This document shows positions 1 through 31,257 of a stretch of 64,000 nucleotides of DNA, in pieces. This DNA comes from an uncultured Kiritimatiellota bacterium (GTDB taxonomy: Bacteria; Verrucomicrobiota; Kiritimatiellia; RFP12; UBA1067): the NCBI GenBank assembly GCA_934643865.1, contig CAKUCX010000006.1:16936-80935 (forward strand), written 5' to 3'. The translations under genes were made by a program, and so were the position numbers. Under the pieces are notes generated by a model. That model saw nothing but the letters and a program-made list of their open reading frames with translations, had not been told where the DNA came from and ran no database searches. How positions within the stretch are numbered: position 1 is the stretch's first letter; every line of letters starts with the position of its first letter.

Positions 1-15
1 ATGTCGGGTAGGTAG

Positions 16-237
16 GGCGCGCGAAGTACCCGCGCCGCCTCGGCACGTGGCGTCCTACCCCCCCCCTGTCTCATATTTCTTCCATGGTCGATTTCCCAAT
101 ATGAGGTTATCGGCCCCTAGCCCACTTTTTATAAAATGTGGGCCAATGTACCCACACAGCCGAAAATCGAAACCATCCATCCGAACGGGCCGTTGCACAG
201 TGCCACGCGCCGAGGCGGCGCGGGTACATCGCGCGCC
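16..237. repeat. Inverted repeat pair, 36-bp arms (16-51 and 202-237), about 150-bp spacer
   Basis: GGCGCGCGAAGTACCCGCGCCGCCTCGGCACGTGGC at 16-51 is the reverse complement of 202-237 with 2 mismatches. It lies at the window edge. Confidence 0.6.
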
Positions 238-731
238 GGGCCAGGTGCGTGGCGTTCAGGACCGGTGCGTGGCGTTGTGAGGGAATTGGTCTGGTACCCA
301 CGTATCGGATACCACGTATCAGAACAACGCAGGGAACAACACGGGGACTCGGTGGCGGCCGCACCGTCCGCAAGCGCCACGTCACCGAGCGTAGGCGGCG
401 CACCATCGCACGCGAGCGTCGCGCCCACCGCCACGTCCCAAGCCGCCGCAGCCTCCTCGGACCCCTGCTCCTGTATGAGACCGCAGGACCTGTAAAAACT
501 CACGCCAACAGGCCAAACGCTTGTATTTTCAGGCCGTCCTGGACTTCGGCCCCGGCGGAATGGGACAGCAGACGCGCTGATAGGGCCGTTTTCTCGGGGA
601 TGGTGTCATCGGGCTGAAAAACCTGCTTCAGGCGGGGAGAAGATAACTCATAGATTCGTTCGAGAATGACGTTTTATACGGCGTCATGAAATCGTGCTTT
701 GTCTGAGTGGAACGGCAGTGAATTTGATTGA

Positions 732-2726
732 TTACGGATTCTTGTCTCGCTTCAATATCTCAATCCTGCAAAGATACACATCGGATGGCGCACCCGTGCC
801 GAATGACGGCATTTTGAAGGTCTTTATGAATCGGAGCCGGTATTCTTTCGCGTGTTCACGATAATGTTGCAGATTGTATGCGTGCTGCGAATCAGCGAGC
901 GCGTAGAGTTTTGCGTCAGGCTCGCTTTTCAGTATGGATTCAATCACTGGTATGGGGTCGCTGTTCGCGGCGAAAGTGGTGGCGGTCCTTATCGGAAGCG
1001 ACATGAGCATCTGGTTGGATCGTTCGCCTATGACGATTGCATCCTTCGGCAAGAGTGCGGCCAATTCCCTAGCTGCGGCCTCATGTTGATGCATTCCACT
1101 CCTGACAAGCTCGCAGAACGATGATCGCCAGTTTGGAGTTGCAAGATAGCATGACAAAATGCAAGCGGGGATGACGAACAAAAGAATCCGACGCCAGGGC
1201 AACCTTTCTTTGAAACCGAATACGGCGACAAGGAACAAAACGGATATGACGAGTGAAATGGCCATGGGCGAAAAATACTCGCTGGGTGATTTCTTGATGT
1301 GACTTGCCAATTGCACGGCTGGGAAAGGCGCGAATACGACTGATGCAGCCACAAACGAAGTTGCTATCCAGACAACCGCATTGACCTTGATAGATCTAAA
1401 TCCGTGCAGAAACGCAACAACAATGGAAACAGAAACGACGAAAGCGAATATCATTTGCCAAGTCATGCCCCAAACGTTTTTTGCCGGCAGATTGTATATC
1501 CGCGAGTAGAAGTTCTGGCTTGTCGCCGGCGGAATCGACACCGATGCTGCGAATATCAGCCCTACGGCGCAAAGCGCAAAAGTCAGAAGTAGCGGCAACA
1601 AGGCCTTGCCCCATGTCGTACGCTCTTCTAAAATGGAACATTGCTCCAATTCAGATGCAATGGCAAAGGAAAGAATCGGCAGTATCACGATTACCGGAAG
1701 GAAATAGTGCGTATAGATGGTGTTCATCACCGATATCGCGGCAACATATGCGGGAACTGCGAGAAACAGCAACAGATGCCCATTCCATCTTTTTGCCAGG
1801 GCGTTTCTTGCAGCCATTGCGATTGGAATCGAAAGCATCAGCGGTGCGACAACGCCGAGAAGCTGGATGGATGGGTCGCGTGGAAATGACGAAATTCCCT
1901 TGAAGTGCGACGCGAAGTTGAAGAGCGGCGGCAATGGATAGTGCGTGGTGGTTTTCCTGACAATCTCCCATATCGACACACCGACCCTGGCGGCGTCTGG
2001 CATGACGGATAGCGCCACTATAAATTTATACGCGAACGCGGCTGCGACGGCGACACCAACGAACAGCAGCAGATCCTTGGTGCTGTCACGCAGACTTCTG
2101 TCCCGGGCCACCCCTGCGGCCACGATAGGAAGCAATGCCCATACGCTTGGCTTCACTAGGATTATCGCCCCCGACAGCAGCGCAGCGCAGATAATCCGCC
2201 ATCGCTTTCCTCCAGCGGCGCAAACATACGAAATGACCAGAAGAGCACCTATTAGGGCATCGTTGCTCGCGGTACGCTCGTATGCCACGACCATCGGCAC
2301 GAGCGACACGGAAGTGCAGAGCGCGAATGCCGTTGTCGCCCCCGCCCTCTTGGCTAAGTGCAGGAACGCAAAGAGCCATGCGGCAAAATAGACGCAAAGA
2401 AAAGGGATGCGCCATGTCCATGTGGACAGTCCGAATGCGAGATGCGATGCGTAGCTCAGCCAATGCGTTCCAGCGGAGAATCCGTAGGTGAACGCCTCGT
2501 TTCGCGGCAGATCGACAAAGTGGTTCCAGACAAATTTCTCCTTTCCTCCAGAAAGGTAATAACCCTCATCAGTTGCGTTATAGCCGTATTCCCAGATTGA
2601 CGGTATGCCTGGATCGCAGTCGATCCACGGCAGACGGAAGAGCAGATAGATCACGGAAAAAGCTACAAGCAGCAGCCAGAACTTCATTCGGCCGTCTTTG
2701 CGGATACAAAGCCTCGAAATTTCCAT
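732..2726 (-). CDS. Polytopic membrane protein, GT-C-type glycosyltransferase-like (ArnT/PMT_2-like)
   Basis: 664-aa ORF with many hydrophobic spans and an acidic DEGYY loop after the first TM, as in GT39/GT83-type enzymes. It has a soluble C-terminal domain. AAGGA lies 9 nt upstream of ATG 2726 (alternative ATG at 2687). The region is visibly AT-richer than its flanks. Confidence 0.45.
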   Translation of the reverse strand: MEISRLCIRKDGRMKFWLLLVAFSVIYLLFRLPWIDCDPGIPSIWEYGYNATDEGYYLSGGKEKFVWNHFVDLPRNEAFTYGFSAGTHWLSYASHLAFGLSTWTWRIPFLCVYFAAWLFAFLHLAKRAGATTAFALCTSVSLVPMVVAYERTASNDALIGALLVISYVCAAGGKRWRIICAALLSGAIILVKPSVWALLPIVAAGVARDRSLRDSTKDLLLFVGVAVAAAFAYKFIVALSVMPDAARVGVSIWEIVRKTTTHYPLPPLFNFASHFKGISSFPRDPSIQLLGVVAPLMLSIPIAMAARNALAKRWNGHLLLFLAVPAYVAAISVMNTIYTHYFLPVIVILPILSFAIASELEQCSILEERTTWGKALLPLLLTFALCAVGLIFAASVSIPPATSQNFYSRIYNLPAKNVWGMTWQMIFAFVVSVSIVVAFLHGFRSIKVNAVVWIATSFVAASVVFAPFPAVQLASHIKKSPSEYFSPMAISLVISVLFLVAVFGFKERLPWRRILLFVIPACILSCYLATPNWRSSFCELVRSGMHQHEAAARELAALLPKDAIVIGERSNQMLMSLPIRTATTFAANSDPIPVIESILKSEPDAKLYALADSQHAYNLQHYREHAKEYRLRFIKTFKMPSFGTGAPSDVYLCRIEILKRDKNP

Positions 2727-3117
2727 TTCATGATTTCCTTACTGCATCCTCCGCAGAACCTCCCCCCAGCGTGTAGTATCCACTCTCGCCCGCTCATACC
2801 GGCCGCCCCTCTCTGCGGGCACGTAGACCAAAGGTCCAAAACCGCTCGGCTTTGTGCCCCCTTGCAAAGGCATGAATCTCATCACGCTTCACGGCTCTTT
2901 CGTCCATCACGTACATGCGCGCACATCCTCCGCCCATGTTCCACGCCACCGTTTCAGGGCATGGCGCGTCCAAAGGGGAAAGACGCAGACAGTTTAGCAT
3001 TCCCGTCCCCAAAGGTCAATGGAAGCAGCAGGTTTTTCAGGCGCCCGCCCGGCGCTGCGCCCGCCCGGCGCGACAGGTGGTCGTCAGGAGCGGCAGATAC
3101 TCCTTCTGCCGGTAGGG

Positions 3118-3175
3118 AAATAGGGGACAGTCCCCCCATTAAATAGGGGACTGTCCTCCATGGGGAAATAGGGGA
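3118..3175 (+). repeat. Three direct copies of AAATAGGGGA (3118, 3141, 3166); the first two extend into near-palindromes GGGGACAGTCCCC / AGGGGACTGTCCT
   Basis: Read directly from the sequence. Spacing is 23 and 25 bp, in a non-coding stretch. Confidence 0.6.
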
Positions 3176-3295
3176 TGCGGAATTCACATCTGTGATCAAT
3201 CTAGGTTGACTGAATGCCCCTTCACTGGCCTACGGAGCTGTTAACCTGCCCCTAGTTGCATTTAGTCTGTCCGGCGACCAGTAATGTGAGCCCCC

Positions 3296-3513
3296 CATGC
3301 CTGAGATTTCAGTGCGTAATAAAATCTCATCCATGGACAGAATCGTCATCTGCGAGAACGTCATCGCCTCGGCAATCAAATCTTGTGGGCCGCAAAGGAC
3401 ACAACGTTCACAAAGCCTTTGCGCTCTTTGTGATCTTTGTTGCAGAAATCGCCATATTCCGTTGCCGGATCGAGAGGTTGAGGAATCGGCCGTGTAAAGG
3501 TGTAGAAATGTGA
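3296..3513 (+). repeat. Dispersed structured repeat, copy A (core TGAGATTTCAGTGCGTAATAA at 3302-3322)
   Basis: The 5' ~105 bp and 3' ~110 bp align at roughly 85% with the reverse complement of 39993-40423. The core 21-mer is also found at 40559-40579. Confidence 0.7.
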
Positions 3514-3551
3514 AAGGGGGAGGGCCGCAACAAGTTGCGGCCCTCCCCCTT
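3514..3551. other. Perfect 18-bp-stem hairpin (AAGGGGGAGGGCCGCAAC aa GTTGCGGCCCTCCCCCTT)
   Basis: The arms at 3514-3531 and 3534-3551 are exact reverse complements. Confidence 0.8.
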
Positions 3552-3635
3552 GGCGTCCCTCCCGTCGCAGTCATCAAGCCGAGTTGCAGGCGGACGCCCC
3601 GCGCCGCCCCCCTTTCCAAACGAAAGGCGCAAAAG

Positions 3636-3682
3636 CTCTTGACGCAAAGGACGCAGAGCCTCTGCGTCCTTTGCGTCAAGAG
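3636..3682 (-). terminator. Perfect 22-bp-stem hairpin overlapping the stop of the AAA/PD-(D/E)XK gene; likely intrinsic terminator
   Basis: CTCTTGACGCAAAGGACGCAGA gcc TCTGCGTCCTTTGCGTCAAGAG. On the minus strand it is followed by CTTTTGCGCCTTTCGTTT. It carries the ACGCAAAG motif shared with hairpins at 40166-40213 and 54247-54292. Confidence 0.5.
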
Positions 3683-5307
3683 AGCCCGCACCCCGCCCCG
3701 TCCGCCGCGACCTCGACCTGGCGGTCGGAGAGGTTGCGCATGTCGGCGTCGAACGCCGCGCCGACGAGCGTGACCTTCTTTCCGCACCGCAGCCACTTCT
3801 CGGCGTAGCCCTTCGCCTTGATCTGCGCGAGCGCGGCGGCGGCCAACACAGATGTCGGCCCTCCTGGGGAGGGACGCGCTCCGTCGCGTCCGCCCGCGCC
3901 CAGCTTGAACTCGAAGACGTAGACGCCGCGCGGCGTCTCCACGACCGCGTCCACGCGCCCCCGGTTCGTCCAGCACTCCGCGTGCGTGCGCGCGCCGATC
4001 AGGACGAAGACCGCGTAGAAGAGCGTCTGGTAGTACTTCTCGCGCTTCACGGTGATGTTCGCCGGGATGTTCGCGAAGAAGCACGAGAGCGCGTCGAGCA
4101 TGTCGTCCACGTCGTCCGCGCGCAGGGCCTCCACCATCTGCGTGAGGAGCGAGGCGTGTTCGGCGGCCGGCAGGGCCGAGAACGCGCGCGAGACGGCCTT
4201 CGAGAAGGCGTTGCGCACCTCGTCGTTCGGGAAGCCGAGCGTGTACTGCGTGTAGACGCCCTCGCGCGCGCTGCCCGTGATCGTCAGGTAGCCCGTCTGG
4301 TAGAGGAGCGGCAGCAGTTCCGGTTCCGAGGGCTCGTAGACCGAGAAGGCCCCTTCGTCCAGCGTCACGCCATCGACCTGCTCCGGCGCGTCCTTGAGCA
4401 GCTGCAGGAGGAACGTCGGCGCCCCCGTCTCGAACCAGTACTCGCCGAACCTACCCGCCGAAAGGCACTTGCCGACCGAGACGGGGTTGAAGACCGGCAC
4501 GGCGTTCTCCGCGAAGCGGTAGCCGTCGTACATCTTCACGAGGTGCGCGAACGTCGTCTCGCCGTCCCAGCCGTAGTTCGCGCCGAGGGCCGCGAGCGAG
4601 GCGGGGAAGTTCGCCTTGACCTCCTCGTGCGTGTAGCCGAAGAGCGTCGCGACGCGCGCGTCCATCGAGAACTCGTTGAGGTTGTTGAGGTCGGAGAAGA
4701 CCGACACCTTCGAGAACTTGCTGACGCCCGTCATGAACGCGAAGCGCTGAAGCCCCTCGCTCGTCTTGATGACGGAGTAGAACTCCTTGAGCGCGTCGCG
4801 GACGTCGTTCACGTCCGGCTTGCCGAGGCGCCCGAGGAGCGGCTTGTCGTACTCGTCGACGAGGAGGACAACCTTCCCGTCCGGGCTGCGTTCCGCGAGA
4901 TCCGAGATCAGCATCTCAAACTGGCCCGAAACCGGAAGGCCCTCGCGCAGGGGAACGCCCAGCCGCTCCGCGTTGCGCAGGAGCTGCACGCGGATCTTCT
5001 GCCAGAGCATGTCCACCGTCGCCGCCTGGCAGCCGGACATGTCGAGCTTGAGGACAGGCCACGTCTTCGACCAGTCCCAGTCCGGCTCGATGGCGAGGCC
5101 CCTGAAGAGGCCGCGCCGCCCCTCGAAGAGGCACTGCAGGGTCGAGACGGCGAGCGACTTCCCGAAGCGGCGCGGGCGCGCGATGAAGAACTGCTTGCCG
5201 AGCGAGCCGTCGGCGAGCGTCTTCAGGATCGCCGTCTTGTCCACGTAGACGAACCCGCCCTCGCGGACGTCGGCGAACGAAAAGGTGTCTGTCGCAATCT
5301 TCTCCAT
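3676..5307 (-). CDS. AAA-ATPase-like protein with C-terminal PD-(D/E)XK nuclease domain (AAA-ATPase_like / PDDEXK_9 architecture)
   Basis: 543 aa. The N-terminus FVYVDKTAILKTL...FFIARPRRFGKSL matches the predicted AAA-ATPase family. The C-terminus RVDAVVETPRGVYVFEFKL is PD-(D/E)XK-like. Confidence 0.7.
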   Translation of the reverse strand: MEKIATDTFSFADVREGGFVYVDKTAILKTLADGSLGKQFFIARPRRFGKSLAVSTLQCLFEGRRGLFRGLAIEPDWDWSKTWPVLKLDMSGCQAATVDMLWQKIRVQLLRNAERLGVPLREGLPVSGQFEMLISDLAERSPDGKVVLLVDEYDKPLLGRLGKPDVNDVRDALKEFYSVIKTSEGLQRFAFMTGVSKFSKVSVFSDLNNLNEFSMDARVATLFGYTHEEVKANFPASLAALGANYGWDGETTFAHLVKMYDGYRFAENAVPVFNPVSVGKCLSAGRFGEYWFETGAPTFLLQLLKDAPEQVDGVTLDEGAFSVYEPSEPELLPLLYQTGYLTITGSAREGVYTQYTLGFPNDEVRNAFSKAVSRAFSALPAAEHASLLTQMVEALRADDVDDMLDALSCFFANIPANITVKREKYYQTLFYAVFVLIGARTHAECWTNRGRVDAVVETPRGVYVFEFKLGAGGRDGARPSPGGPTSVLAAAALAQIKAKGYAEKWLRCGKKVTLVGAAFDADMRNLSDRQVEVAADGAGCGLS

Positions 5308-5399
5308 GCCGCACAGTATAGCACATCACGCGCTTCCAACGCTTAGCACCCGTCAAGAACTGACAGGGAGGACGGCGACGCGCCCGGCGGGCTTTTGCG

Positions 5400-6953
5400 T
5401 CAAGAGAAGAGGACGCGGAAGGCGGGGGCCAGGCGCGCGCGGAGGGTCGCGGCGACGGCGCGCGCGTCGGCCGTCCAGCCGTAGAGCGCGGCGAAGGCGG
5501 CGGCGTACGCGGCCGAGACGGCGGCGGCGCAGCCGAACCAGCCCAGCCAGCTTTCCGGCTCGGGCGCGAGCAGAGCCTTCGCGCCGGCGGAGAACGCGAC
5601 GGGGAGGAGCGTGAGCGCGGCGTACTGCCGCCAGTACGCGCCAAGCGGACGGTCGAAGCGCAAGCGGAAGAGCAGATAGGGGCCGCGCCAAAACGCCGTC
5701 AGCCCATAGGAGACGATCGTCCCGACAAGGACTCCCGCGAGGCCGAGCGGGCCTACGAGCGCGACGGAGACGGCGACGTTGAGCGCCGCCTCGATGAGCG
5801 GGCGCGGCTTGTCGCGCACGAAGAGCCCGGAGGCCGTAATATTCGCGCCGACCGTACACCACGAATTCTGGAGATAGAAGAGAACGCAGAGGACGACCTC
5901 GACGCCCGTGCCAAGGCAGAAGCGCGCGCCGAGCCAGAGGCGGATGAACGGCCCGACGAGGAGGAAGAGCCCCGTCGCGGCGAAGCCGCTGAGCGCGAGG
6001 TTCAGGAACTGCATCTTGCGAAAGAGGCGGTAGACGTCCACGGGCGCGAGCGTCGCGTAGGCGTTGCCGTAGTTCGAGGTGAAGACGCCGAGGAACTGCC
6101 CCAGCAGGCGCGCGAGCGCGGAGACGAGGAGCGCGTAGTTGGAGTAGAGGCCGACCGCCGCGAGGCCGACGAACTTCGAGAGGACGATGCTGTCCGTCGA
6201 GCTGACGACCGTACCGCCGACGCGGTGAAGCATGAACGCGCCGGCGTCCTTGAAGATCTCGGCCTTCTCCGCGCGCGGCAGGCGCTCGCAGACGGCGAAG
6301 ACAGCCCGGTAGCGCCGCGTCGTCCAGGCGCTGAGGAGCCCGTTGAACGCGAGGACGAACGCGACGCCGGAAGCGAGCGTCCAGACGAAGCTGCGCGTCA
6401 GCCAGAGGACGAGGATCTGGACGGCGAAGCGTCCCGTCTCGGAGACCATCGACGCGAAGAGCGCGACGTGGTTCTTCCGGTCGGCGTTCCAGATGGAGAG
6501 GCGGTAGGAGAAGAGGTAGGTGGAGACGCTCTGCGCGAGGAAGAGGAGGTAGACGACGTTCAGGTTCACGTCGCCCGGCACGTCGGAGGCGTCCCTGACG
6601 AGGTGGCCGACGAACGGGAAGAGCGCAAGCCCAAGGGAGAGGACGACGAGCGCGACGAGGAGGTAGACCTGGCGGAAGAAGCGCATGAGCCGCCCGACCT
6701 GCACGACGTCGCCGGCGGCGATCGGCTTGTAGAAGCGGTAGCAGATGGCGGCCCCGACGCCGAGCTCGGCGAGGGCGAGGAGGCGGAAAACGTCCCAGAA
6801 GAGCCCGTTGATGCCGAGGTAGCGCTCGGAGAGGAGGGCGATGAACGCCGTGCGGTAGGCAAAGCCGGCGGCGACGTTGACGACGTGGCAGAGCGTCCCG
6901 ACGCCGGACGCGCGGAGCATGCTCGCCGCGCGGCTCTGGCGGTTGAAGGTCAC
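5400..6953 (-). CDS. Polysaccharide flippase / Wzx-type (MOP superfamily) membrane protein
   Basis: 517 aa, GTG start, about 12-14 hydrophobic spans. It resembles lipopolysaccharide/oligosaccharide flippases and sits with GT and esterase neighbours. Confidence 0.55.
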   Translation of the reverse strand: MTFNRQSRAASMLRASGVGTLCHVVNVAAGFAYRTAFIALLSERYLGINGLFWDVFRLLALAELGVGAAICYRFYKPIAAGDVVQVGRLMRFFRQVYLLVALVVLSLGLALFPFVGHLVRDASDVPGDVNLNVVYLLFLAQSVSTYLFSYRLSIWNADRKNHVALFASMVSETGRFAVQILVLWLTRSFVWTLASGVAFVLAFNGLLSAWTTRRYRAVFAVCERLPRAEKAEIFKDAGAFMLHRVGGTVVSSTDSIVLSKFVGLAAVGLYSNYALLVSALARLLGQFLGVFTSNYGNAYATLAPVDVYRLFRKMQFLNLALSGFAATGLFLLVGPFIRLWLGARFCLGTGVEVVLCVLFYLQNSWCTVGANITASGLFVRDKPRPLIEAALNVAVSVALVGPLGLAGVLVGTIVSYGLTAFWRGPYLLFRLRFDRPLGAYWRQYAALTLLPVAFSAGAKALLAPEPESWLGWFGCAAAVSAAYAAAFAALYGWTADARAVAATLRARLAPAFRVLFS

Positions 6954-6962
6954 GGCGCGACC
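6887..6962. repeat. 76-bp direct repeat, copy 1 (covers the true 5' end of the flippase gene)
   Basis: Identical to 10140-10215 except for one base (GAAGGT versus GAAAGT). Confidence 0.9.
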
Positions 6963-7030
6963 TTTCTTGCAAGGCCGAGACGCCGGGCGGCAGACGGGGA
7001 CATTCTCTCAACAGACGGCATGCTCACTTG

Positions 7031-7375
7031 TCAACTCCTGAAGATGAAGAAGACCGCCGCGAAGATGCAGACCGCGGCCGCCAGGTAGTTCCATGAGACG
7101 GGCTGGCGCATCACCAGCACCGAGAACGGCATGAAGACGAGGAGCGTGACCGCCTCCTGCGTGATCTTCAGCTGCTCCAGCGTCATCGTCTTCGCGCCGA
7201 TCCGGTTGGCGGGGACGGCCACGCAATACTCGACGAATGCGATCAGCCACGAGACGAGGATCGCCATCCAGACCGGCGCGCCCGACAGGCTGCGCAAGTG
7301 GCCGTACCAAGCGTAGAGCATTACGAGGTTCGACACGCAGAGAAGCCCCACGGTCATCCAATTGACGTTTGACAC
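7031..7375 (-). CDS. Small DMT-superfamily membrane protein (DUF486-like)
   Basis: 114 aa with four hydrophobic helices. The sequence VEYCVAVPANRIG...LKITQE is typical of the DUF486/DMT family. Confidence 0.6.
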   Translation of the reverse strand: MSNVNWMTVGLLCVSNLVMLYAWYGHLRSLSGAPVWMAILVSWLIAFVEYCVAVPANRIGAKTMTLEQLKITQEAVTLLVFMPFSVLVMRQPVSWNYLAAAVCIFAAVFFIFRS

Positions 7376-7404
7376 AGGTTAAACTCTTTCTTCCGAATGG
7401 TTAG

Positions 7405-8880
7405 TTATCGACAGTTTTCTGCAATGGGGTCAGACCCCATAGATACCCTGAAATAATATCCACCCGTTTTCTTGCTGCCGCGATGCTCAATCGAACCGTC
7501 GGCAACCAGTTTTGCAAGGACCCGCTCAACCGTCGCCTTGCTCTTGCCCGTCAGCATCACCAACTTTGGTTTGTTGATGCCCGGAGCAGATCTTATCGCC
7601 TCATTTATCACCTCATTTATCGCCTCATTTATCGCCTCATCGCCCCGTTCAACGGCCTTTGCATCCTCTATTATCGCATTGGGGGCCGCGCGGACGCAAA
7701 CCATGAGATCCCCTGGCTCGCCGGGATTGACCGTATAGTGCGGTTGCGGGCATCCGTGCTTGCGGCATTCCCGCATGACCTTCTCTATGCCACGTCCCCA
7801 TGTCTCAATCTTGCCCGTCAGATAGACACATCCGGCGACAGTGGGATTCGCAGGACGGGAGACATGCTTCTTCATCAACGTCTCAACCGTCCAAGTCTCA
7901 GGAAGCGAGCCGACATTCGCAACATACAACCTGTCGGCATAAACACTGATCTGAATCGGAATCCCGCTTGAATAATCCTTGTGGACAAGCGCATTGAAAA
8001 TCAATTCGCGCAACCCTTCCTTTGGGAACGGGAACTTCTCGACACGCTGTTCGCCGTTCTCATACCAAATCTTCGCCTTAAGATACTTGAAATAGATGAG
8101 ATCAAGCGTCTTCTCCGCCTGTTCAAGCAAGGAGCCATGTACGTCATCATGGTACATCAAATCCGCGTCATCCACGCCAAACATCCCGACCTTGACGTAC
8201 GCACCCGGAATCCACTTCTCTGCCTTCTCCGAGAACAGAAGCGCGGCAGCATACGTCAGGCCATCCTTGGCGACAAGATGGAGGTTCGTGACAAATGCCT
8301 CCTTGGACTCCCGGCGCACCGAGTCATCCAGTCGTCCCTTGTCGATGGACAAATCCTTGAATCGCTTGATTTCCCGTGCCGAAACGTCCTTCATTTTGAA
8401 TCGAGGGCAGGGCAGATTCTCCCAGTGAAGTCCCCGGCGTCTGAGAAGGAACGCCTCCAGCCCCGGCCCCGAGAGTCGCTGGTTCGTCGCGCCGCGCCGG
8501 ACATAATAGACACCACGAAGCGAAATCGGAACCGGATACGCGGGAACGACAATCTCAATGACATCCTTATTCTTCAGTTTCAGATGGTTGACCTCGGCGA
8601 TCATTCCCATCGTATCGCGCATCACGTTGGGAATCGTTTCAAGAAGTGTCTTCCAGTCGGCAACACCGACAACCTCATTGTCCCTCTTGTCATCGGCAAC
8701 GCCAATGAGCATGCGTCCGCCCTCGGCATTGGCAAACCCACAGATCCACTTGAGATATTCCTCTCGCCAGCTCTGCTTGTATTCGGTGTTCTGGTCTTCT
8801 TTCCGCATAGAATCCTTTTGTTTGATGACTGTGCGGATTTCGTCAAGCGATCCACATTCAAGTCGTGTTTCACTTTGCAT
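7405..8880 (-). CDS. AlbA_2 (Schlafen-like 'divergent AAA') + HATPase_c_4 + C-terminal wHTH protein (COG2865-type, often annotated RecG-like)
   Basis: 491 aa. TEYKQSW...ICGFANAEGGRMLIGV is the AlbA_2 signature. NALVHKDY...GRGIEK is the HATPase_c_4-like part. The gene is AT-rich and contains an (INEA)4 12-bp tandem repeat. Confidence 0.7.
   Translation of the reverse strand: MQSETRLECGSLDEIRTVIKQKDSMRKEDQNTEYKQSWREEYLKWICGFANAEGGRMLIGVADDKRDNEVVGVADWKTLLETIPNVMRDTMGMIAEVNHLKLKNKDVIEIVVPAYPVPISLRGVYYVRRGATNQRLSGPGLEAFLLRRRGLHWENLPCPRFKMKDVSAREIKRFKDLSIDKGRLDDSVRRESKEAFVTNLHLVAKDGLTYAAALLFSEKAEKWIPGAYVKVGMFGVDDADLMYHDDVHGSLLEQAEKTLDLIYFKYLKAKIWYENGEQRVEKFPFPKEGLRELIFNALVHKDYSSGIPIQISVYADRLYVANVGSLPETWTVETLMKKHVSRPANPTVAGCVYLTGKIETWGRGIEKVMRECRKHGCPQPHYTVNPGEPGDLMVCVRAAPNAIIEDAKAVERGDEAINEAINEVINEAIRSAPGINKPKLVMLTGKSKATVERVLAKLVADGSIEHRGSKKTGGYYFRVSMGSDPIAENCR
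7593..7640. repeat. 12-bp tandem repeat x4 (TTATCGCCTCAT), in frame, encoding EAINEAINEVINEAI
   Basis: Read directly from the sequence; it lies inside the AlbA_2 gene. Confidence 0.85.
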
Positions 8881-8915
8881 CAGGACCTTCTAACGAATGA
8901 TCTCTTGATAGGGGA

Positions 8916-9812
8916 TCACGCTTTAGCGTATTTTCTGAAAGTTCGCCCCATCACAATGGCCGTATTCTTCATCCATTGGAATGCTTTCATGCGCGTCTCT
9001 TCATCAAAATCACGAAAATCACCAAGTTCATTACGCACAATGATTCGACTGGCATCCTTTTCTTCCAACGGCTGCCATTCAGGCACGAAGCCGAGATCCG
9101 TCTCGATATCTTCTTTCTTCTCCAGGAGGCTGGCGTACAGCTTTTTGTTCTTGGGGATGTAGAACTCGACACCAACCCCATTCTGCCGCACATTTATCGT
9201 AAGCGAAATATGTCCGGCGGAAACACCACATCCTAGATCAACCCAATGATCAGACGGGGCTTTTCGTCCAGCACGGAAGACTTTAACATATTCAGGGTCT
9301 TGGTCGGCGAACGCGAAAAACGCCGCCCAATACCCACGGCGCGCGGCAAGAGTCTCGTCAAACTTGCCGCGAGTGGCGTCCGCTGCCGCAGATTCCTCTT
9401 TTTCTTTCTTTGTTTCCTCATACTTCACCAACTCACCACCCGTCAGACCCGCGATCTGTTCCAACAGTTCATACGCTTCTTCTGCCTCCATCTGAAAGAA
9501 TTCGCGCTGACGGACAACCTTCCCAGACGCATTCTTCTCCACCGTTCGCAAATCCGAGCGGAGCATATCTATCAGCCTGTGTACATAGATGTCGCTACGG
9601 GCTGAACCGCTGTCCTCGACCGCGAGCGTCGCGTAGATCTTGAATGAAAACGGAACGGCCGTGCTGCCGTCAAGCTCCCGCTTGCGCTGTTCGACATTCG
9701 CCGCCCATCCAATCTTCACATACTCCTTGAAACTCGGATTGGTCATGATATAGATATAACCTTTATTCACACTTGCATCTCCGTTTGTTTGCTTATCACA
9801 ATTGTACAACAC
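8916..9812 (-). CDS. T5orf172/MUG113 (GIY-YIG-like) N-terminal domain fused to DUF4268
   Basis: 298 aa. GYIYIMTNPSFKEYVKIGWA...RELDGSTAVPFSF is the T5orf172 pattern. The C-terminal half (YWAAF...HISLTINV...VGVEFYI) resembles DUF4268. The gene is AT-rich. Confidence 0.6.
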   Translation of the reverse strand: MLYNCDKQTNGDASVNKGYIYIMTNPSFKEYVKIGWAANVEQRKRELDGSTAVPFSFKIYATLAVEDSGSARSDIYVHRLIDMLRSDLRTVEKNASGKVVRQREFFQMEAEEAYELLEQIAGLTGGELVKYEETKKEKEESAAADATRGKFDETLAARRGYWAAFFAFADQDPEYVKVFRAGRKAPSDHWVDLGCGVSAGHISLTINVRQNGVGVEFYIPKNKKLYASLLEKKEDIETDLGFVPEWQPLEEKDASRIIVRNELGDFRDFDEETRMKAFQWMKNTAIVMGRTFRKYAKA

Positions 9813-9834
9813 AAAGGGCCTCAGATATCATCCG

Positions 9835-9984
9835 TCAATTATTCCAGCCAATTCGAGTCAAGAATGAGTTTAATCGCCTTAATTGCGCCTGAGTCAGCCA
9901 CACCATCTCGTTCTCAAGCCGTACATCCAATCGAATGGTCTCGTTCGGCTGATAAATGACAATCTGATTCTCGGCGTTGTCCAT
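9835..9984 (-). pseudogene. N-terminal fragment of a RhuM-family gene
   Basis: A 49-codon ORF, MDNAENQIVIYQPNETIRLDVRLENEMVWLTQAQL..., matches the conserved RhuM N-terminus. It then diverges and stops, whereas full-length proteins are about 330 aa. Confidence 0.55.
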
Positions 9985-10139
9985 GTCCGTCACGCTCTTT
10001 CTGCCCACTTTCAAGCCTACATTATATCATTTTCGTCTCATCGCCCTGGCGAATAAAGATCCGCGCGCAGACGCCATGTTCGATACTCCTTCTGAACTCA
10101 TCCGTGCGGCGTTTGGCCCGGAGGCGGATCGGAAGAAGC

Positions 10140-10215
10140 GGCAGAGCGTCCCGACGCCGGACGCGCGGAGCATGCTCGCCGCGCGGCTCTGGCGGTTGAA
10201 AGTCACGGCGCGACC
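10140..10215. repeat. 76-bp direct repeat, copy 2 (orphan copy of the flippase 5' end, immediately after the GDSL stop)
   Basis: 75/76 identity to 6887-6962. It encodes VTFNRQSRAASMLRASGVGTLC and then unrelated sequence. Confidence 0.9.
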
Positions 10216-10219
10216 CGCC

Positions 10220-11074
10220 TCACAGAAACGGCGCGAGCGCCTTCATCCAGATGTCGTAGCCCGCGTCCGTGGGATGGATCTCGTCGGCCATCAGCGCGCG
10301 CGGCACCCATCCCGTTTCGTCCACGAGCTGCGCGTTGACATCGACCCAGACGATCTCGGGATGCGCGTCGGCGAAGCACTTCAGGAGCCTGTTCGTCTCG
10401 TCGTTGCGCGCCCGCGCCGCCGCGTGGCGCGCGGACTGCGCGGAGGCCCCGCGCGGGAAGATCGGGTGGAGGATGATCCGCGCCCGGGGCTGCCGAGCCC
10501 TGATCTGCGCGACGATCTTCTCCACGCCCTTCGCCACGTCTTCGGGCCTTGCGGACTTCGCGGAGTTGTTGTTCGTGCCGATCATCAGCACCACGTTCCG
10601 CGCCGTGTAGCCGTCGAGCTCGCCGTGGGCGATCCGCCAGAGGACGTGCTGCGTGCCGTCGCCGCCGTAGCCGCAGTTGAGGACCCGGCGCCCGGCGGTG
10701 AACGCCGCCCAGCTCGCAGGGTGGCGCCATTCCCAGAAGTGCATGATCGAATCGCCAAGCATCACCACGTCCACCGTCTGCCCCTTCAGCGCCCGCACCT
10801 GCTCGATGCGGCTCAGGAAGCGGTTCGCCCACCAGTAGTCCCCAAACGGGCCCTCCCCGCGTCCCGGCGCAGCGTTGCGCGAATTCATCCGCGCCGCCGC
10901 CACGCATTCAACCGGCTCCCGCGCCGCCGCCGCGTCCGCCGCCCCCGCCGCCAGCGCCACACAGGCGGCCAGCCCCAGCAATCCCCGTTTCATTGAGCTT
11001 GCGTGGCGCACCATGCTCTTGCCCCGTCCGCGCCTCAACCCGTCATCGTTATGCCTGTCGTTCGTTTCGTTCAT
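10220..11074 (-). CDS. SGNH/GDSL hydrolase (PAF-acetylhydrolase / sialate O-acetylesterase-like), secreted
   Basis: GDSIMHFW block I, CGYGGDGTQHVLWR block II, MIGTNN block III and DEIHP block V are all present. AGGAG lies 9 nt upstream of ATG 11074. The signal-peptide-like MKRGLLGLAACVALAAG begins at 10993. Confidence 0.75.
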   Translation of the reverse strand: MNETNDRHNDDGLRRGRGKSMVRHASSMKRGLLGLAACVALAAGAADAAAAREPVECVAAARMNSRNAAPGRGEGPFGDYWWANRFLSRIEQVRALKGQTVDVVMLGDSIMHFWEWRHPASWAAFTAGRRVLNCGYGGDGTQHVLWRIAHGELDGYTARNVVLMIGTNNNSAKSARPEDVAKGVEKIVAQIRARQPRARIILHPIFPRGASAQSARHAAARARNDETNRLLKCFADAHPEIVWVDVNAQLVDETGWVPRALMADEIHPTDAGYDIWMKALAPFL

Positions 11075-11186
11075 TGCAGTTTTCTCCTGTCGGACGATGC
11101 CCCGTCGTCAGACCCGGGCATCTTGTTCGGTTGATGTTTCATTCTTCATTTCCCATTTTCTTATAAAGAGTGGTCTGCGTTGCGAG

Positions 11187-12314
11187 TCAGATACCATGCT
11201 CCAGCCTCCGCTTGAGCGCGTCGATGCGGCGCTTCGCCCACAGGAGCGGCGGCAGCAGCGGCACGGCGTGCGCGAGCGTCGCCGCGAAGAGGCGCGCCGC
11301 GCCGCCCGCAGCCGCGACGTCCGCCGCAAGGAAGCGCGCGCGCAGGCGCCGGAGCGCGCGCCGCTTCGCGCGCCCGGACCGCCGGGGCGCGCAGCAGACC
11401 GCCTGCGCCTCGTGGTAGAAGACGAGAAAGGCGAGGCGCCGCGCCGTCTGCGGGTCGTCGCGTCCGAGCCCGCCCGCCAGGAAGATGCGCCGCTTCTCGC
11501 GCGCGAGCCGCAGCCAGTTGCGCGCGCGCACGAAGTCCCCTTCCCGCCGGTAGTAGCCCGAGCAGGCCGACGCCTCGAAGCGCAGGTAGTCGTAGAGCGT
11601 TGTGCGGACGGCCGCGAGCGTCCCCGCCGACAGGAGGTAGTCGAGGAGGAACATCTCGTCCTCGCACATCGTGATGCCGCGCCGGAAGCGTATCTTCCGC
11701 GCCTCGATGAGGTCGCGCCGGAAGAGGCTCGCGACGAGGTAGCCGTTCACGCGGCGCGTCCCGAGGAGGAGCGGGTAGAAGACGCGCGCGAGGATCTCCG
11801 CGCGTCCGCGCAGCGTCTCCGCCGCGCCCGCGAACGGGAACATGACGACGCCGTCGGCCGTCTTCTCCGGCCCGCAGTCGCAGAGGGCGCCGCTCGCAAG
11901 GTCGGCCCGCTCGCGCGCGGCCAGCGCGAGCAGCGTCGTGTAGATTGCCGGGCGCACGCGGTCGTCGGAGTCGCAGAACGCGACCCAGTCGCCGCGCGCG
12001 GCGTCGAGCCCCCGGTTGCGGGCGACGCACACGCCGCCGTTCGGTCCGGAGAGGACGCGAAAGCGCGCGTCCTTCGCCGCGAAGGCGCGGCAGAGCGCGA
12101 GCGAGCCGTCCGTCGAGCCGTCGTCGATGAGGATGAACTCGCAGTCGGCGAGGTGCTGCGTCCGCAGGGCCTCCAGGCACGCGCCCAGCCGCGCCGCCGT
12201 GTTGTAGACGGGCACGACGACGCTCACCTTCGGCCTCGCGGCCAAGGCGGCAGCAGACGCGGCCGGTGCCTCGTTCAGAAGCCTCTCAACGGCCCGTTTT
12301 CGACAATCGCCCAT
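11187..12314 (-). CDS. Family 2 glycosyltransferase
   Basis: VSVVVPVYN...ILIDDGSTDGS...FCDSDD are GT2 motifs. The start is set at ATG 12314 because TGGTATACT (12335-12343) lies 20 nt upstream. The ORF stays open in frame up to 12590. Confidence 0.7.
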   Translation of the reverse strand: MGDCRKRAVERLLNEAPAASAAALAARPKVSVVVPVYNTAARLGACLEALRTQHLADCEFILIDDGSTDGSLALCRAFAAKDARFRVLSGPNGGVCVARNRGLDAARGDWVAFCDSDDRVRPAIYTTLLALAARERADLASGALCDCGPEKTADGVVMFPFAGAAETLRGRAEILARVFYPLLLGTRRVNGYLVASLFRRDLIEARKIRFRRGITMCEDEMFLLDYLLSAGTLAAVRTTLYDYLRFEASACSGYYRREGDFVRARNWLRLAREKRRIFLAGGLGRDDPQTARRLAFLVFYHEAQAVCCAPRRSGRAKRRALRRLRARFLAADVAAAGGAARLFAATLAHAVPLLPPLLWAKRRIDALKRRLEHGI

Positions 12315-12334
12315 AATCGCCCCTAACGGCTGCC

Positions 12335-12343
12335 AGTATACCA
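12335..12343 (-). promoter_or_regulatory. Extended -10 element TGGTATACT
   Basis: Minus-strand TGGTATACT lies 20 nt upstream of the GT2 ATG. The same element type recurs upstream of other genes in the window. Confidence 0.4.
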
Positions 12344-12857
12344 TATCCTCGCCGCCGTAGTAGCCCGGTTTCTGCGCCTGGATGTTCGCCGCCGTGTCAA
12401 CAATCTTCAATTCAACGTCGTTCGACGCCTGGCCCGTGCGGCCGTCGCCGAGGAAGATGTCGCCGTTCGTACCGACCGTGCCCGCAAACGCGCAGTCCGT
12501 CTCCTCGGCGACCTTATCGACGCTGCCGGTGTCGGCGGCCGCCTGTTCCCCAAACGCCACGAACGCGAACAAAATCGTCGCCTTTCGCACGATTCTCGCA
12601 AACTACATCATATTTGGTCTTCTCACTTTCATGGATTCTGTGTACCCCGCCTCTCGTTTTTGGAGTGAAGGGCGCATCGTCTACTCCCCCCGGCTGACTG
12701 TGCAAGAATTTGAACAGCGTTTTTGTCTTTGGCGTTTTTAACCTTCCTTCGGTCTTTAACCACGGAAGGCGCGGACACGCCTTCGGCGACACGGAAAACG
12801 TTTATGCCTGGGATGCGGCCGAATGCCGGCACATGCGATGCATCCGATGGATGCGCG

Positions 12858-17816: not shown

Positions 17817-19490
17817 TCATCCAACCGCCTGCACAGGCGTTTCAAAAGGCTCCCTCCGCTTCATGGCCGGATCCGGCACGCACTGGGCAGCCGCCCGCTG
17901 AACGACAGCATCGACGGCCGCATCGACGGCCGCGCGGCCACGCTCGCCGTACAATGCCGCGAGACGCTCGACGTCGGCCATGGAAAGGCTTTTGGCATGG
18001 GGGATGCGGACGTTTCGGAGGTTCTGCGCCTGGTAACGTATGAACCCGCCCCGCATCTCGGCCGAAAGGCATCTCATCTGGTTTGTCACAAAAGAGCTGC
18101 GCATCAGCACGCAGAGCGCCCGAAGATCCCACCCCTTTGACGTGATCCAGTATACATTGTGATGCGGGTAAAGGCGGCCACGCTCGTCCAGCGCGACATT
18201 TCCGCCGACCTGGATGTCCGGTAGGAGGAGCTTCGGGCTCCTCAACACGCGATAACGGATGCGATCCAGCGTCCGATACCACGCATCGGGATGTTTCTTC
18301 GCGCAGTAGCGCCCCTTGAGCCGCCCGGCATGCGCCTCAAGATAGCCCGCCATCTTTGGATAGTCCGCCAGATCCTTCATGAGCCTGTCGTCGTCGTTGT
18401 CATACGGGTTCAAGATGTAGTGGCCGCGCCAGTTGGCCACGCCGTCCGCGATGTCGCCCGCCATCACCAACGGCAGAAGGCACCCCTCCTCCAGGTCGCA
18501 GGCCCTCTGCGCATCGACATAGAGATCGTCGGCGCCGGACGCGACGCCGATTCCGATGCGCGTCCCGGGCGCCGATTCCTCAATGACAGGGAAGGCCCTT
18601 GACGCCCACTCCGCGAAATCACGGCGGTCGCGGCTCGTCGAGATCCACGGCGCCTCATCGCGATACCAGCTGTCGAATGCCGAGAGGTTCCCCCTGGACG
18701 CCCTGTTTTCCCGCAGCGTCTTCCGGGAGGCGTCGCCAATCGTCTTCGCAAGCGTCCTCTCGCCGACATGGCGGTCGAGGACGCAGATTGCCGGATAGGC
18801 CGAAACCTCCTCCTCGAACGGCTGGGCGTGCTCCATGTTCAGATAAAGGGCGACCCTGTATTCCCGTGAGATCAGCGAACGCAACCTCCTCCCGTAGCTG
18901 CTTTTGGCGAAGCGGTTCGAGCAGATGAACGAAAGCACGCCGTCCGCCGCCAGCAGCGACAGGGCCTTTTCGAAGAACGGGACGTAGATGTCACAGCGCG
19001 CCGAGAACGTCTTGTACCGTGACTTGTACTCGCCCTGCAGCTGGGGGGCGAGGGCGTCAAAGCGGATGTAGGGGGGATTGCCGATCACGACATCGAAGTT
19101 CCGCGCAAAGCCGTGAAGCAGGAAATCGCAGCGGACGAACCACGTGCGGACAAGCTCCTCGGCCCGCCCGCTCGGGCATCCCCGGCCCAGCAGCACGGAC
19201 TTCGTCCGGGAGGCGACCGCTTCAATGTTGTCCTCTGAAATGTCGCATGCCGTCAAGAAGGAATCCAGCCGCGCATCCGTCCAGTCCGCGACTTCGGCAA
19301 GGACCTTCTCGACCAACGGCAGGACGAATGCGCCCCTTCCGCAGCTTGGCTCAAGGACGCGTGCGCCCAACCACTTCCGGATCCTTCCAAAATAAGCGAC
19401 CTCGTGGATCATGTGGTCGACGACTTCACGCCGCGTAAAGACCTCCCCTGTGACGTTCCGGCGGACCGTTCTGGACATTCGCGAGGTCAT
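17817..19490 (-). CDS. Type II N6-adenine DNA methyltransferase (Eco57I/TaqI-like gamma class; M.PaeR7I/M.XhoI-like)
   Basis: Motif I is EPSCGRGAF and motif IV is VIGNPPYIRF. The gene has a 4-nt overlap with the upstream endonuclease gene. Confidence 0.8.
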   Translation of the reverse strand: MTSRMSRTVRRNVTGEVFTRREVVDHMIHEVAYFGRIRKWLGARVLEPSCGRGAFVLPLVEKVLAEVADWTDARLDSFLTACDISEDNIEAVASRTKSVLLGRGCPSGRAEELVRTWFVRCDFLLHGFARNFDVVIGNPPYIRFDALAPQLQGEYKSRYKTFSARCDIYVPFFEKALSLLAADGVLSFICSNRFAKSSYGRRLRSLISREYRVALYLNMEHAQPFEEEVSAYPAICVLDRHVGERTLAKTIGDASRKTLRENRASRGNLSAFDSWYRDEAPWISTSRDRRDFAEWASRAFPVIEESAPGTRIGIGVASGADDLYVDAQRACDLEEGCLLPLVMAGDIADGVANWRGHYILNPYDNDDDRLMKDLADYPKMAGYLEAHAGRLKGRYCAKKHPDAWYRTLDRIRYRVLRSPKLLLPDIQVGGNVALDERGRLYPHHNVYWITSKGWDLRALCVLMRSSFVTNQMRCLSAEMRGGFIRYQAQNLRNVRIPHAKSLSMADVERLAALYGERGRAAVDAAVDAVVQRAAAQCVPDPAMKRREPFETPVQAVG

Positions 19491-20227
19491 GAACGTGCCC
19501 GAAGGAAAAGATAGAGCGACTTGAAGAAGGCGTAGGCGGAGACGCCGCCCCCGCCATCACGCACGGTCGCCGTGTCCTTGTCCGAGAGGACCAAGGCCGC
19601 CGCATGATAGTCGCGCTCAAGCATCAGCCGCTCACAAAGGATTTCGTAACGGCGGAGATACGAAGACCCGACAAAGACATCCATGGGCGGAATCGGGCTC
19701 TTGCCGAGGGCCACGGGGTACGTGGAAGCCTCCGAATCCTCGACAAAGAGGAAATACCCCAGCCAGGGCGGCGCGATCACGCCAAACGCCTTCTCGCGGT
19801 ATGCCGTCCAGAAATCGCGCGCGACGCCAAGGGCCTCCTCGGAGCGATTGTTGAAGTTGTTTCCGAAACTTCCGCTCTGGGATTTCAGCTCAATTACCGC
19901 AACAAGCTGAACGCCCCTCAAGAAAACGACATCCCAATTCTTCTGCGGACGATAATACCCCGGGATCGGCACCGCCGCGTTGAAGAAGATCTCGTCCGGG
20001 CCAAAGCCGGCGGCGATTCCGACGTCCCGGATCAACGCGGCGAACCCATCCAACTGCCTGCCTCCCGTGACCTGCCCGCGCGTCCCGGCGTCGCGCCCGC
20101 CACGGCTCCTCTGCTTGTCGGCCTGATCCCGGCGCGTTGCCCAGTACATCCTGGCCGCACCGTGCAGCTTGGCGAAGAGGTCTTCACGTGTAAAGGGCAG
20201 GTCCATCGTGTCGGCGTCCTTTTTCAT
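19487..20227 (-). CDS. XhoI/PaeR7I-family type II restriction endonuclease
   Basis: 246 aa. RDAGTRGQVTGGRQLDGF...VIELKSQSGSFGNNFNNRSEEALG matches my recollection of the XhoI-family (PF04555) core. Confidence 0.7.
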   Translation of the reverse strand: MKKDADTMDLPFTREDLFAKLHGAARMYWATRRDQADKQRSRGGRDAGTRGQVTGGRQLDGFAALIRDVGIAAGFGPDEIFFNAAVPIPGYYRPQKNWDVVFLRGVQLVAVIELKSQSGSFGNNFNNRSEEALGVARDFWTAYREKAFGVIAPPWLGYFLFVEDSEASTYPVALGKSPIPPMDVFVGSSYLRRYEILCERLMLERDYHAAALVLSDKDTATVRDGGGGVSAYAFFKSLYLFLRARS

Positions 20228-31079: not shown

Positions 31080-31257
31080 GGGCCTATGATAACACAGGAA
31101 CGGGAGAATGACAAGACTACGGTGCGGACGAAATCCTGTTTTCGCCTTGAACCGTCTCATGGAAAACCAACCGCGTCGAGAGCTGTCGCGCGGGGAGCTT
31201 GAAATCCGCCTTTTGGCATGGATGTTCCCCGGCCAAAGCAGCACGCCCGCCTCCCGT

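Follow-up and report, generated by a model that had tools for sequence, protein, structure and literature searches.

Madara (PDC-S11), validated in 2026, joins a NucS-like PD-(D/E)XK head to a C-terminal putative modification sensor and restricts T4(ghmC), not T4(C) (bioRxiv 10.64898/2026.09.05.749240). MdgA and MdgB, obtained by functional metagenomic selection, are modification-specific DUF4268 nucleases that degrade modified T4 DNA (PMC12366544); to judge from the catalytic residues D63/E77, MdgA is probably itself a PDC-S11 protein. Odn (Gp88) of ICP1 is an active T5orf172 nuclease of the GIY-YIG type, to which a fused domain gives specificity (PMC8263062). Both DUF4268 and AlbA_2 have been described as accessory C-terminal domains of modification-dependent GmrSD-type enzymes. 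AlbA_2 is also the killing or effector nuclease domain of Avs9 and SAMD9/9L and the effector nuclease of SLFN-pAgo. The Schlatpases combine this Schlafen domain with a GHKL ATPase (PF13749). The family numbers 60,692 members, mostly small proteins, some of which have a C-terminal helix-turn-helix (HTH) region; it is linked to defence islands and restriction-modification (R-M), and its stand-alone form is without direct experiment (bioRxiv 10.64898/2026.05.29.728809). Here we describe a 3177-bp islet in a 64-kb stretch of DNA (the window) from an uncultured Kiritimatiellota bacterium. It carries a gene for a T5orf172-DUF4268 fusion and a gene for a stand-alone Schlatpase.

The islet, which is decayed and recombinase-less, occupies a variable surface-polysaccharide locus in a high-GC gut bacterium and lies there at the very 5' end of a flippase gene. 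The best explanation of the locus as a whole, which we hold with moderate confidence, is that one old insertion of the Campbell type is at its origin and that its two genes are independent single-gene defence candidates. All genes of the region are on the minus strand and all coordinates are window positions unless a contig is named.

Occupied and empty sites

An earlier note on this DNA had proposed that the esterase and flippase genes that now flank the islet were once adjacent. Four independent metagenome contigs (L004, L016, L135 and L137) show them directly adjacent: 6963-10139 is missing there and the order is GDSL stop codon, 13 nt, flippase start, with a single copy of a 76-bp sequence that occurs twice in the window. 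The empty alleles of L135 and L137 are on a second genomic background, separate from L004 and L016. (L137 was also considered as an example of an alternative cargo; this was rejected, and the contig is an empty-type allele with later deletions.) The insert is present in more than 20 contigs, many of them collinear with the window, and contigs that encode exactly the same flippase or exactly the same esterase occur in both the occupied and the empty state. Samples that contain the species include ERZ28614788 and ERZ15609957. The segment 6963-10139 is a true presence/absence polymorphism. The features of the occupied site in the window, in the order of transcription, are:

11187-12590, minus strand: GT2 glycosyltransferase gene
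10220-11074, minus strand: GDSL/SGNH esterase gene (Pfam GDSL), the left flank in transcription order
10140-10215, minus strand: GDSL-proximal repeat copy, made up of flippase codons 1-22 and the 9 nt before them; a dead stub
6963-10139, minus strand: strain-variable insert, 3177 bp
10015-10139, minus strand: left arm of the insert, about 60 nt in common with second-background inserts followed by the RhuM upstream region
9835-10014, minus strand: RhuM-family gene stub, of which the N-terminal 48 or so residues are left, followed by a frame-end tail
8916-9770, minus strand: intact T5orf172-linker helix-DUF4268 gene, 284 aa from a GTG start (longest open reading frame (ORF) to 9812)
7405-8808, minus strand: intact AlbA_2-HATPase_c_4 gene with a putative C-terminal HTH region ('Schlatpase'), 467 aa from M25 (longest ORF to 8880)
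7424-7440, minus strand: hairpin ATGGGGTCTGACCCCAT in the DMT_6 leader
7029-7447, minus strand: DMT_6 copy with a leader of about 70 nt (coding sequence 7031-7375)
6963-7028, minus strand: 66-nt spacer between the DMT_6 copy and the repeat, unmatched elsewhere in the fetched loci
6887-6962, minus strand: flippase-proximal repeat copy, containing the working flippase start
5400-6953, minus strand: polysaccharide flippase gene (Pfam Polysacc_synt), 517 aa
6909-6930, second copy 10162-10183: CGCGCGGAGCATGCTCGCCGCG, an imperfect palindrome of 22 nt at the centre of the repeat

Exact alignment of 6887-6962 with 10140-10215 bears out the repeat described in the earlier note: 75 of the 76 positions match, and identity drops sharply on both sides, the adjoining 22 nt having just 13 matches between the copies. 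A 76-bp repeat of this kind in 64 kb is far beyond chance expectation. It consists of the 9 nt located 5' of the flippase GTG together with flippase codons 1-22. The GDSL-side copy begins 4 nt past the GDSL stop codon and heads an ORF of 59 codons (10027-10206). In the fetched contigs the 76-bp core occurs between GDSL and cargo (n = 24), between spacer and flippase (n = 26) and between GDSL and flippase (n = 4). Each of the two copies has an identical junction in all occupied contigs: on the GDSL side ...CTCTGCC is followed by GCTTCTTCCGATCC and on the flippase side GCAAGAAAGG is followed by TCGCGCC. The locus has both the direct flanking repeats (attL/attR) and the precise empty site (attB) of an integrative element. 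Since occupied and empty strains encode an identical flippase protein, the duplication preserves the flippase gene, in agreement with the earlier suggestion that its 5' end had been regenerated.

In second-background contigs the two copies of the repeat have accumulated differences. A block of about 6.8 kb (5440-12227, from the GT2 start to the flippase end, with both repeats and the cargo) is approximately 96% identical inside different flanks (Glyco_hydro_9, DUF4160, PapZ_C ... GT4, GT2, an HtpG-like gene, SASA). The presence of the same junctions in two genomic backgrounds implies that the insertion happened once and is old. A single T/C difference in the repeat was considered as a sign of secondary deletion in the empty sites and was discarded: the second-background empty sites carry C, and the base tracks the GDSL-flank haplotype and is therefore silent on direction. 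None of the GDSL homologues at 50-77% identity has an adjoining flippase, so that deeper ancestry is unreadable from them. The window also includes sequences paralogous to the GDSL esterase (68-74% nucleotide identity to the gene at 10220-11074) at approximately 34019-35076.

Composition, source and arrival of the insert

The insert is composed of a 60-nt arm, the RhuM stub or a promoter segment, the two genes, the DMT_6 copy and the 66-nt spacer, with sharp joints between these pieces. GC content is 51.7% in the cargo (7405-10139), 61.7% in the DMT_6 gene, 69% in the flippase and GDSL genes and 66% in the window. The cargo had been described as AT-richer DNA with defence-type genes, and this description is upheld by its GC content, by the R-M and GmrSD genes located beside relatives and by candidate hits in PADLOC. 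For the DMT gene (Pfam DMT_6, E = 6.6e-41) the description 'native GC' falls short: the gene is a second copy, 96-97% identical, of a core-genome gene. The native copy has its home in the core-genome order DMT_6-ACT-DUF711-...-Mur ligase-LpxC, with variable DNA directly upstream. Native and inserted copies have only 7029-7447 in common, which extends from the leader hairpin to 2 nt past the stop codon and is 96-97% identical. This hairpin (7424-7440) marks the point at which different upstream DNAs are joined in different loci. Its stem (ATGGGGT...ACCCCAT) is kept and its loops differ among the window, the native loci of L131/L133 and L273. An Rfam search of the segment, including the hairpin, gave no match.

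In second-background inserts the T5orf172 gene follows a segment of 69 nt that includes an extended -10 box (TGGTATAAT). This segment is identical at 66 of 69 positions to the DNA directly upstream of native DMT_6 in L124/L130, where it is fused to a shortened leader; the full leader is common to the cassette-bearing forms and the native loci of L131/L133. In the window strain the RhuM-stub segment replaces the promoter part right up to the T5orf172 start codon. The extended -10 box TGATATAAT, at 10029 to 10021 on the minus strand in the RhuM upstream region, is a motif that suggests a promoter at this position. The stub itself had been recognised as such in the earlier note: it matches PADLOC PDC-S05 (4e-11, over profile positions 3-37 only) and a 71%-identical relative in L168 runs on into Pfam Virulence_RhuM.

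The same block is found in a third context, L273, beside a DDE transposase of insertion sequence (IS) type, and the joints of the block differ in L128 and L273. In L128, which is scaffold_93 of VALL22-1_SAMEA10739833, genes typical of conjugative elements are joined 143 nt upstream of the T5orf172 gene and there is no GDSL gene within 8 kb; these genes represent either another insertion into this position or the element in a more complete form. They include PcfJ, PcfK, DNA polymerase III beta subunit and NikA-like genes (L128 1-7841; 58-62% GC). IS transposases with DDE_Tnp_1 are located at 1208-2392 of L273, directly upstream of the cassette, and at 14627-15691 of L129, between GT2 and the HtpG-like gene on the second background.

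Most of the insert is copied from a block of the chromosome (promoter, two genes, DMT_6), and it is not a recognisable mobile element. In the simplest reading, the block promoter-T5orf172-DUF4268-Schlatpase would once have been located upstream of native DMT_6, and L124/L130 would keep the scar. A copy of the block together with DMT_6 would then have been placed at the junction of esterase and flippase.

The placement itself would be the result of one old Campbell-type integration of a circle carrying its own first 76 bp of the flippase region. Such an integration would duplicate the 76 bp and leave the flippase intact. The topology is observed; the agent would be either a now-absent integrase or homologous recombination. 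Occupied and empty alleles have since been exchanged between backgrounds by homologous recombination, and recombination between the two repeat copies can also remove the insert. The 22-nt palindrome is possibly a recombinase-type core, or may be due to chance in GC-rich coding DNA, and the 66-nt and approximately 60-nt segments beside the repeat copies could be attP arms.

Some genomic islands, for example the dusA-specific islands, enter a gene at its 5' end and restore that end, and integrase-less remnants flanked by att sites are known as CIME-type elements. The islet is similar to these in that the direct repeat is the 5' end of the target, the target is intact, the empty sites are precise and the composition is foreign. 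It differs in having no integrase in any copy, no observed attP form, an interior that is mainly a chromosomal copy and, as a target, a flippase, which is no known hotspot.

Several observations limit this account. No integrase, recombinase or transposase was found among the ORFs of the segment, all of which are accounted for, no integrase or recombinase was found in the more than 20 occupied contigs, and a circular (attP) junction of spacer, core and arm was present in 0 of 54 core instances in the contigs fetched with the genes of this locus. The earlier idea of an att-site-style duplication is accordingly retained for its topology, with neither integrase nor circular junction seen. Identities are mosaic, with 97-98% from GT2 to GDSL in all pairs and 94-95% between the two flippase types; in a recombining mosaic population of this kind no tree separates gain from loss in any given strain. 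Finally, the L273 contig has a coverage of only about 3x and could be chimeric.

The same absence of a recombinase gene and of a circular junction would be expected from a serious rival explanation, in which homology-facilitated illegitimate recombination brought in linear DNA from another strain, or a template switch during replication combined a number of pieces of the chromosome, and the 76-bp duplication is a by-product. In the linear version, homology to the flippase would have anchored one end, and an illegitimate joint at flippase codon 22 would have fixed the other. The patchwork of at least five pieces with sharp joints, the DMT_6 copy that stops 2 nt after its stop codon and the other joints of the same block in L128 and L273 also point in this direction. 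We nevertheless regard this explanation as rather unlikely. A clean 76-bp duplication with sharp identity bounds and a regenerated gene is the classic Campbell-type product, the imperfect palindrome is central in the repeat, the flanking segments of 66 nt and about 60 nt could be attP arms, and there are precise empty sites on both backgrounds.

The two proteins and their relationship

Pfam identifies T5orf172 (1.9e-13, above the cut-off) and DUF4268 (6.1e-24) in a single protein. With the PADLOC models, the head matches PDC-S57 (1.9e-41, positions 3-131 of 221) and the tail matches PDC-S11 (1.5e-24, positions 159-313 of 318). Two full-length PDC-S11 proteins, P0265 and P0109, have Pfam DUF4268 at 175-310, and the fusion is 38% identical to the C-terminal half of P0265 over 169 residues covering linker and DUF4268 (E = 5e-31). 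No alignment was obtained to positions 1-158 of the PDC-S11 profile; residues 18-120 of the fusion are of the T5orf172/GIY-YIG type. The protein has the C-terminal DUF4268 module on a linker helix that characterises the PDC-S11/Madara type and lacks the NucS-like PD-(D/E)XK head, and its match to PDC-S57 is not full length, about 90 C-terminal profile positions being unmatched. The residues Y21, K33-I34-G35, R43 and R103-E104-F105, invariant in 21 relatives, are all present (the conserved glutamate is E104 of the 298-aa ORF and E90 of the 284-aa protein). Both domain match and sequence motif identify the head as a predicted nuclease of the GIY-YIG superfamily/T5orf172 type. The AlphaFold2 (AF2) model of the fusion (pLDDT 87) has a weak structural match to Slx1, and the model of the DUF4268 domain (pLDDT 93.4, pTM 0.88) has a weak likeness to YbjN-family proteins and type III secretion chaperones (TM 0.45-0.52, E ~0.01). 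The fusion has about 1,500 representative homologues and some 22 full-length close relatives; the best 150 representatives fall into about 15 clusters at 50% identity, and the commonest relatives are PDC-S57-type proteins of approximately 220 aa. Sequence searches of the PDB with the fusion and the Schlatpase protein gave no result, nor did a single-sequence scan of species-representative genomes.

By analogy, the fusion is most likely a single-chain, type IV-like, modification-dependent restriction nuclease. DUF4268 would recognise modified phage DNA, as in Madara/PDC-S11 and MdgA/B, and the T5orf172 head of GIY-YIG type, in place of the NucS-like head, would cut DNA. Like Madara/PDC-S11, it is a single polypeptide of about 300 aa with an N-terminal nuclease, a long linker helix and a C-terminal DUF4268, and its relatives are also located beside other restriction systems. 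The differences are in the head, which is NucS-like PD-(D/E)XK in Madara and T5orf172 in the fusion, and in the fusion DUF4268 model, which is not EVE-like. The N-terminal 130 residues match the best of the PDC-S57 models, but DUF4268 is found instead of the C-terminal 90 or so positions, and PDC-S57 is itself a computational candidate. With the type IV restriction enzymes of GmrSD/BrxU type the islet proteins share DUF4268 and AlbA_2, which in those enzymes are accessory C-terminal domains, and a GmrSD_N gene directly follows an 84%-identical relative of the fusion; neither protein has DUF262 or DUF1524. ICP1 Odn provides another parallel, a catalytic T5orf172 head with a separate domain for target choice. 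Odn, however, is phage-encoded with a RepA_N-like sequence-specific domain, whereas the fusion is chromosomal and has DUF4268.

Some points count against a restriction role. The defence roles of both proteins are deduced from homology of parts and from neighbourhoods. An EVE-like or PD-(D/E)XK fold was considered for DUF4268 and rejected, the model having no EVE/PUA-like or nuclease fold, so that the role of modified-DNA reader rests on the published genetics of relatives with another nuclease head. In addition, the window and L268-L272 have an intact fusion gene, while many other strains have a 389-bp internal deletion in it or larger losses and keep a whole Schlatpase gene. Broken copies in many strains imply that selection for the fusion is not constant.

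T5orf172 genes are common as free-standing, homing-endonuclease-like genes of phages, and stand-alone T5orf172 proteins were found on 54 viral contigs. The gene could thus be a selfish one of the homing-endonuclease type that cut near DMT_6 and was copied in, with its neighbours as passengers and no defence role. The recurrent sharp breakpoints of the block, at TTGAAACGAACG on the left and at the hairpin of the DMT_6 leader, would be consistent with this. We consider it highly improbable. The T5orf172-DUF4268 fusion was found on no viral contig (IMG/VR), GenBank phage or PLSDB plasmid, which argues against a homing-endonuclease lifestyle. Its DUF4268 tail is common to validated defence nucleases and GmrSD enzymes, and its relatives are located at the ends of R-M operons in unrelated genomes, with no single conserved target.

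The second protein has Pfam matches to SLFN_AlbA_2 (PF04326, 1.3e-14) followed by HATPase_c_4 (PF13749, 2.3e-18). In an alignment with 14 homologues the invariant residues E33, K35, D63, N296, H300 and W361-G362-R363-G364 are kept, so that both the domain order and the intact invariant residues of the Schlatpase supradomain are present. The homologues start at M25 and end in ...GGYY plus 1-5 residues. The window protein has a C-terminal read-through extension of 13 residues, because a small deletion removed the stop codon. In its HTH region, where L458, G468 and G473 are conserved in the alignment, the window protein has no Pfam HTH match at E <= 0.01, and homologues carry HTH_24, HTH_11 or MarR-type hits. 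Pfam thus confirms every domain named in the earlier note except the HTH, which is seen through homologues only. The 35-bp gene spacing given there is not supported: homologues place the likely starts at GTG 9770 and ATG 8808, giving 107 nt. More than 3,500 homologues of the window protein exist, and residues 37-329 have a partial match to the PADLOC pAgo model. A 12-nt tandem repeat at 7586-7646 in the gene, of strain-variable copy number, encodes AINE/VINE units just before the HTH region.

By analogy with SLFN-pAgo, this protein most likely acts in the same manner: it would be an ATP-gated Schlafen RNase, and the C-terminal HTH would be a sensor or an autoregulator. It resembles RzAgo (SLFN-pAgo) and the Schlatpase family in having PF04326 followed by PF13749, with a putative short HTH region at the C-terminus; most members of the family are built in this way. 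It differs from RzAgo in having no Argonaute core and hence no guide-dependent sensor.

Members of the Schlatpase-type family are annotated as 'putative DNA binding domain-containing protein', 'ATP-binding protein' or 'predicted transcriptional regulator', and no NCBIfam or full-length PADLOC system model matches either the fusion or the Schlatpase protein. These facts, together with the lack of experimental precedent for stand-alone Schlatpases and the broken fusion gene in many strains, would fit a segment of accessory DNA in a polysaccharide locus, encoding an ordinary transcription regulator and a repair or housekeeping nuclease, with no role in defence. This is very unlikely in our view. 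Around relatives, R-M, GmrSD, RadC, Bro-N and Fic/RhuM genes predominate, AlbA_2 is an effector nuclease in Avs9, SAMD9 and SLFN-pAgo, DUF4268 nucleases are validated defences, and strain-variable, AT-rich and often decaying DNA is the usual pattern of defence genes.

The earlier note had considered the pair as an uncharacterised two-gene system. This claim is not sustained by the closest relatives of each gene outside the species, which lack a conserved partner. We examined 80 T5orf172 loci from species-representative genomes within a 10-kb radius. A Schlatpase homologue was present in five of these 80 loci and in none of the nine full-fusion loci, and there is no conserved co-occurrence and order across distant genomes of the kind that defines a multi-gene system. 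The closest fusion relatives have the following neighbourhoods:

P0002, 84% identity: Fic-like_C, 604-aa Schlatpase, fusion, GmrSD_N, Bro-N
P0003, 83% identity: type I R-M, AAA_15, RadC, fusion, EamA
P0008, 79% identity: EcoRI R-M, fusion

The Schlatpase of the P0002 island is only about 24% identical to that of the window and the gene order is reversed. Schlatpase relatives at 77%, 73% and 69% identity have as neighbours HNH_2, a D12 methylase with NmeDI_C, and a HARE-HTH-T5orf172 protein with a protein kinase; there is no T5orf172-DUF4268 neighbour for P0113, P0116 or P0120. The 73%-identical homologue points to Kiritimatiellae, although horizontal transfer may account for this. We therefore infer that the two genes are independent single-gene defence candidates, residents of defence islands rather than a dedicated partnership. 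Each of them fits a class known to act, or described as acting, alone: the DUF4268 nucleases (Madara/PDC-S11, MdgA/B) and the stand-alone Schlatpases.

Against such independence, both genes are always linked behind one promoter within the species, and T5orf172-family and Schlatpase genes are adjacent or near each other in four independent contexts (the window, the L018 group, L111 and L089/L096). Because of the constant linkage we keep a small probability of a functional link. In its general form this would be one obligate two-gene anti-phage system that moves as a cassette, one protein sensing and the other executing, or the two acting as coupled layers. The genes are adjacent on the same strand, share a single promoter segment with an extended -10 box and have moved jointly into three contexts. 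A RhuM/Fic-like gene, a Schlatpase and a fusion are also together in the P0002 island, a different T5orf172 protein is located two genes from a 69%-identical Schlatpase in L111, and the two families adjoin in L089 and L096. We judge an obligate system quite unlikely all the same. In addition to the locus counts, the 83% and 79% fusion relatives follow type I R-M/RadC or EcoRI R-M without a Schlatpase, the P0002 Schlatpase is a distant one of other length and in opposite order, the 77%, 73% and 69% Schlatpase relatives lack the partner, DUF4268 nucleases act alone in experiments and several strains have lost the fusion gene by deletion while their Schlatpase gene is intact.

A more specific form, which we regard as decidedly unlikely, is that promoter, T5orf172-DUF4268 and Schlatpase-HTH constitute a co-transcribed two-layer module, in which a Schlafen RNase would stand as a second line behind a modification-dependent nuclease and cause abortive infection when the first layer fails, and which would be a recombinase-less mobile unit. 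The block would then move by means of a fixed left end, beginning with TTGAAACGAACG, and a right end marked by the hairpin, and this would explain the presence of at least three unrelated flanks.

Neighbouring variable regions and meaning of the locus

A second strain-variable segment of 5.6 kb is located across the flippase (window 1-5348, continuing past the window start; L001 11606-17243). It includes a gene with AAA-ATPase_like and PDDEXK_9 (3676-5307, minus strand) and an AT-rich gene for a 664-aa multi-pass membrane protein without a Pfam match (732-2726, minus strand). In the empty-site strain L004, 61 nt are found in place of this segment. XhoI-like and Eco57I-like R-M genes are located at approximately 17817-20206 (minus strand; coordinates mapped from the L008/L004 gene calls), some 7-10 kb upstream of the islet, and occupied and empty strains alike have them.

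Arg-rich, low-complexity proteins of a single family (415-446 aa, unmatched in Pfam) are found repeatedly next to variable regions, including the native DMT_6 locus and the P0002 defence island. Members are found at 30042-31289 (minus strand) in the window, where the copy is 68% identical, and at L124 6283-7536, L130 7992-9332 and L018 9859-11199. This family was considered as a source of the recombinase and was dropped, since its sequence is of low complexity and matches no Pfam family.

The locus does not represent a new kind of defence system. It is a well-documented and fairly ordinary defence islet, whose history can be read from population data: a block upstream of DMT_6, a copy into the 5' end of the flippase, and decay. 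What is new is modest, namely a predicted nuclease-head-swap variant of the DUF4268 type IV-like nucleases beside a stand-alone Schlatpase. The locus is a clean natural case of defence genes settling in a surface-polysaccharide locus and then decaying. With intact, internally deleted and fully lost alleles, and with occupied and empty sites on two backgrounds, it is well suited to population studies. It also provides a test case for stand-alone Schlatpases, a very large family without direct experiment. If it is true that modified phage DNA is restricted by the fusion, DUF4268 would be able to function with three or more unrelated nuclease heads (NucS-like, GmrSD and GIY-YIG). This would strengthen the view of DUF4268 as a portable sensor of modified DNA and would extend the type IV-like enzymes by a small single-gene member from a gut lineage that has been little studied.

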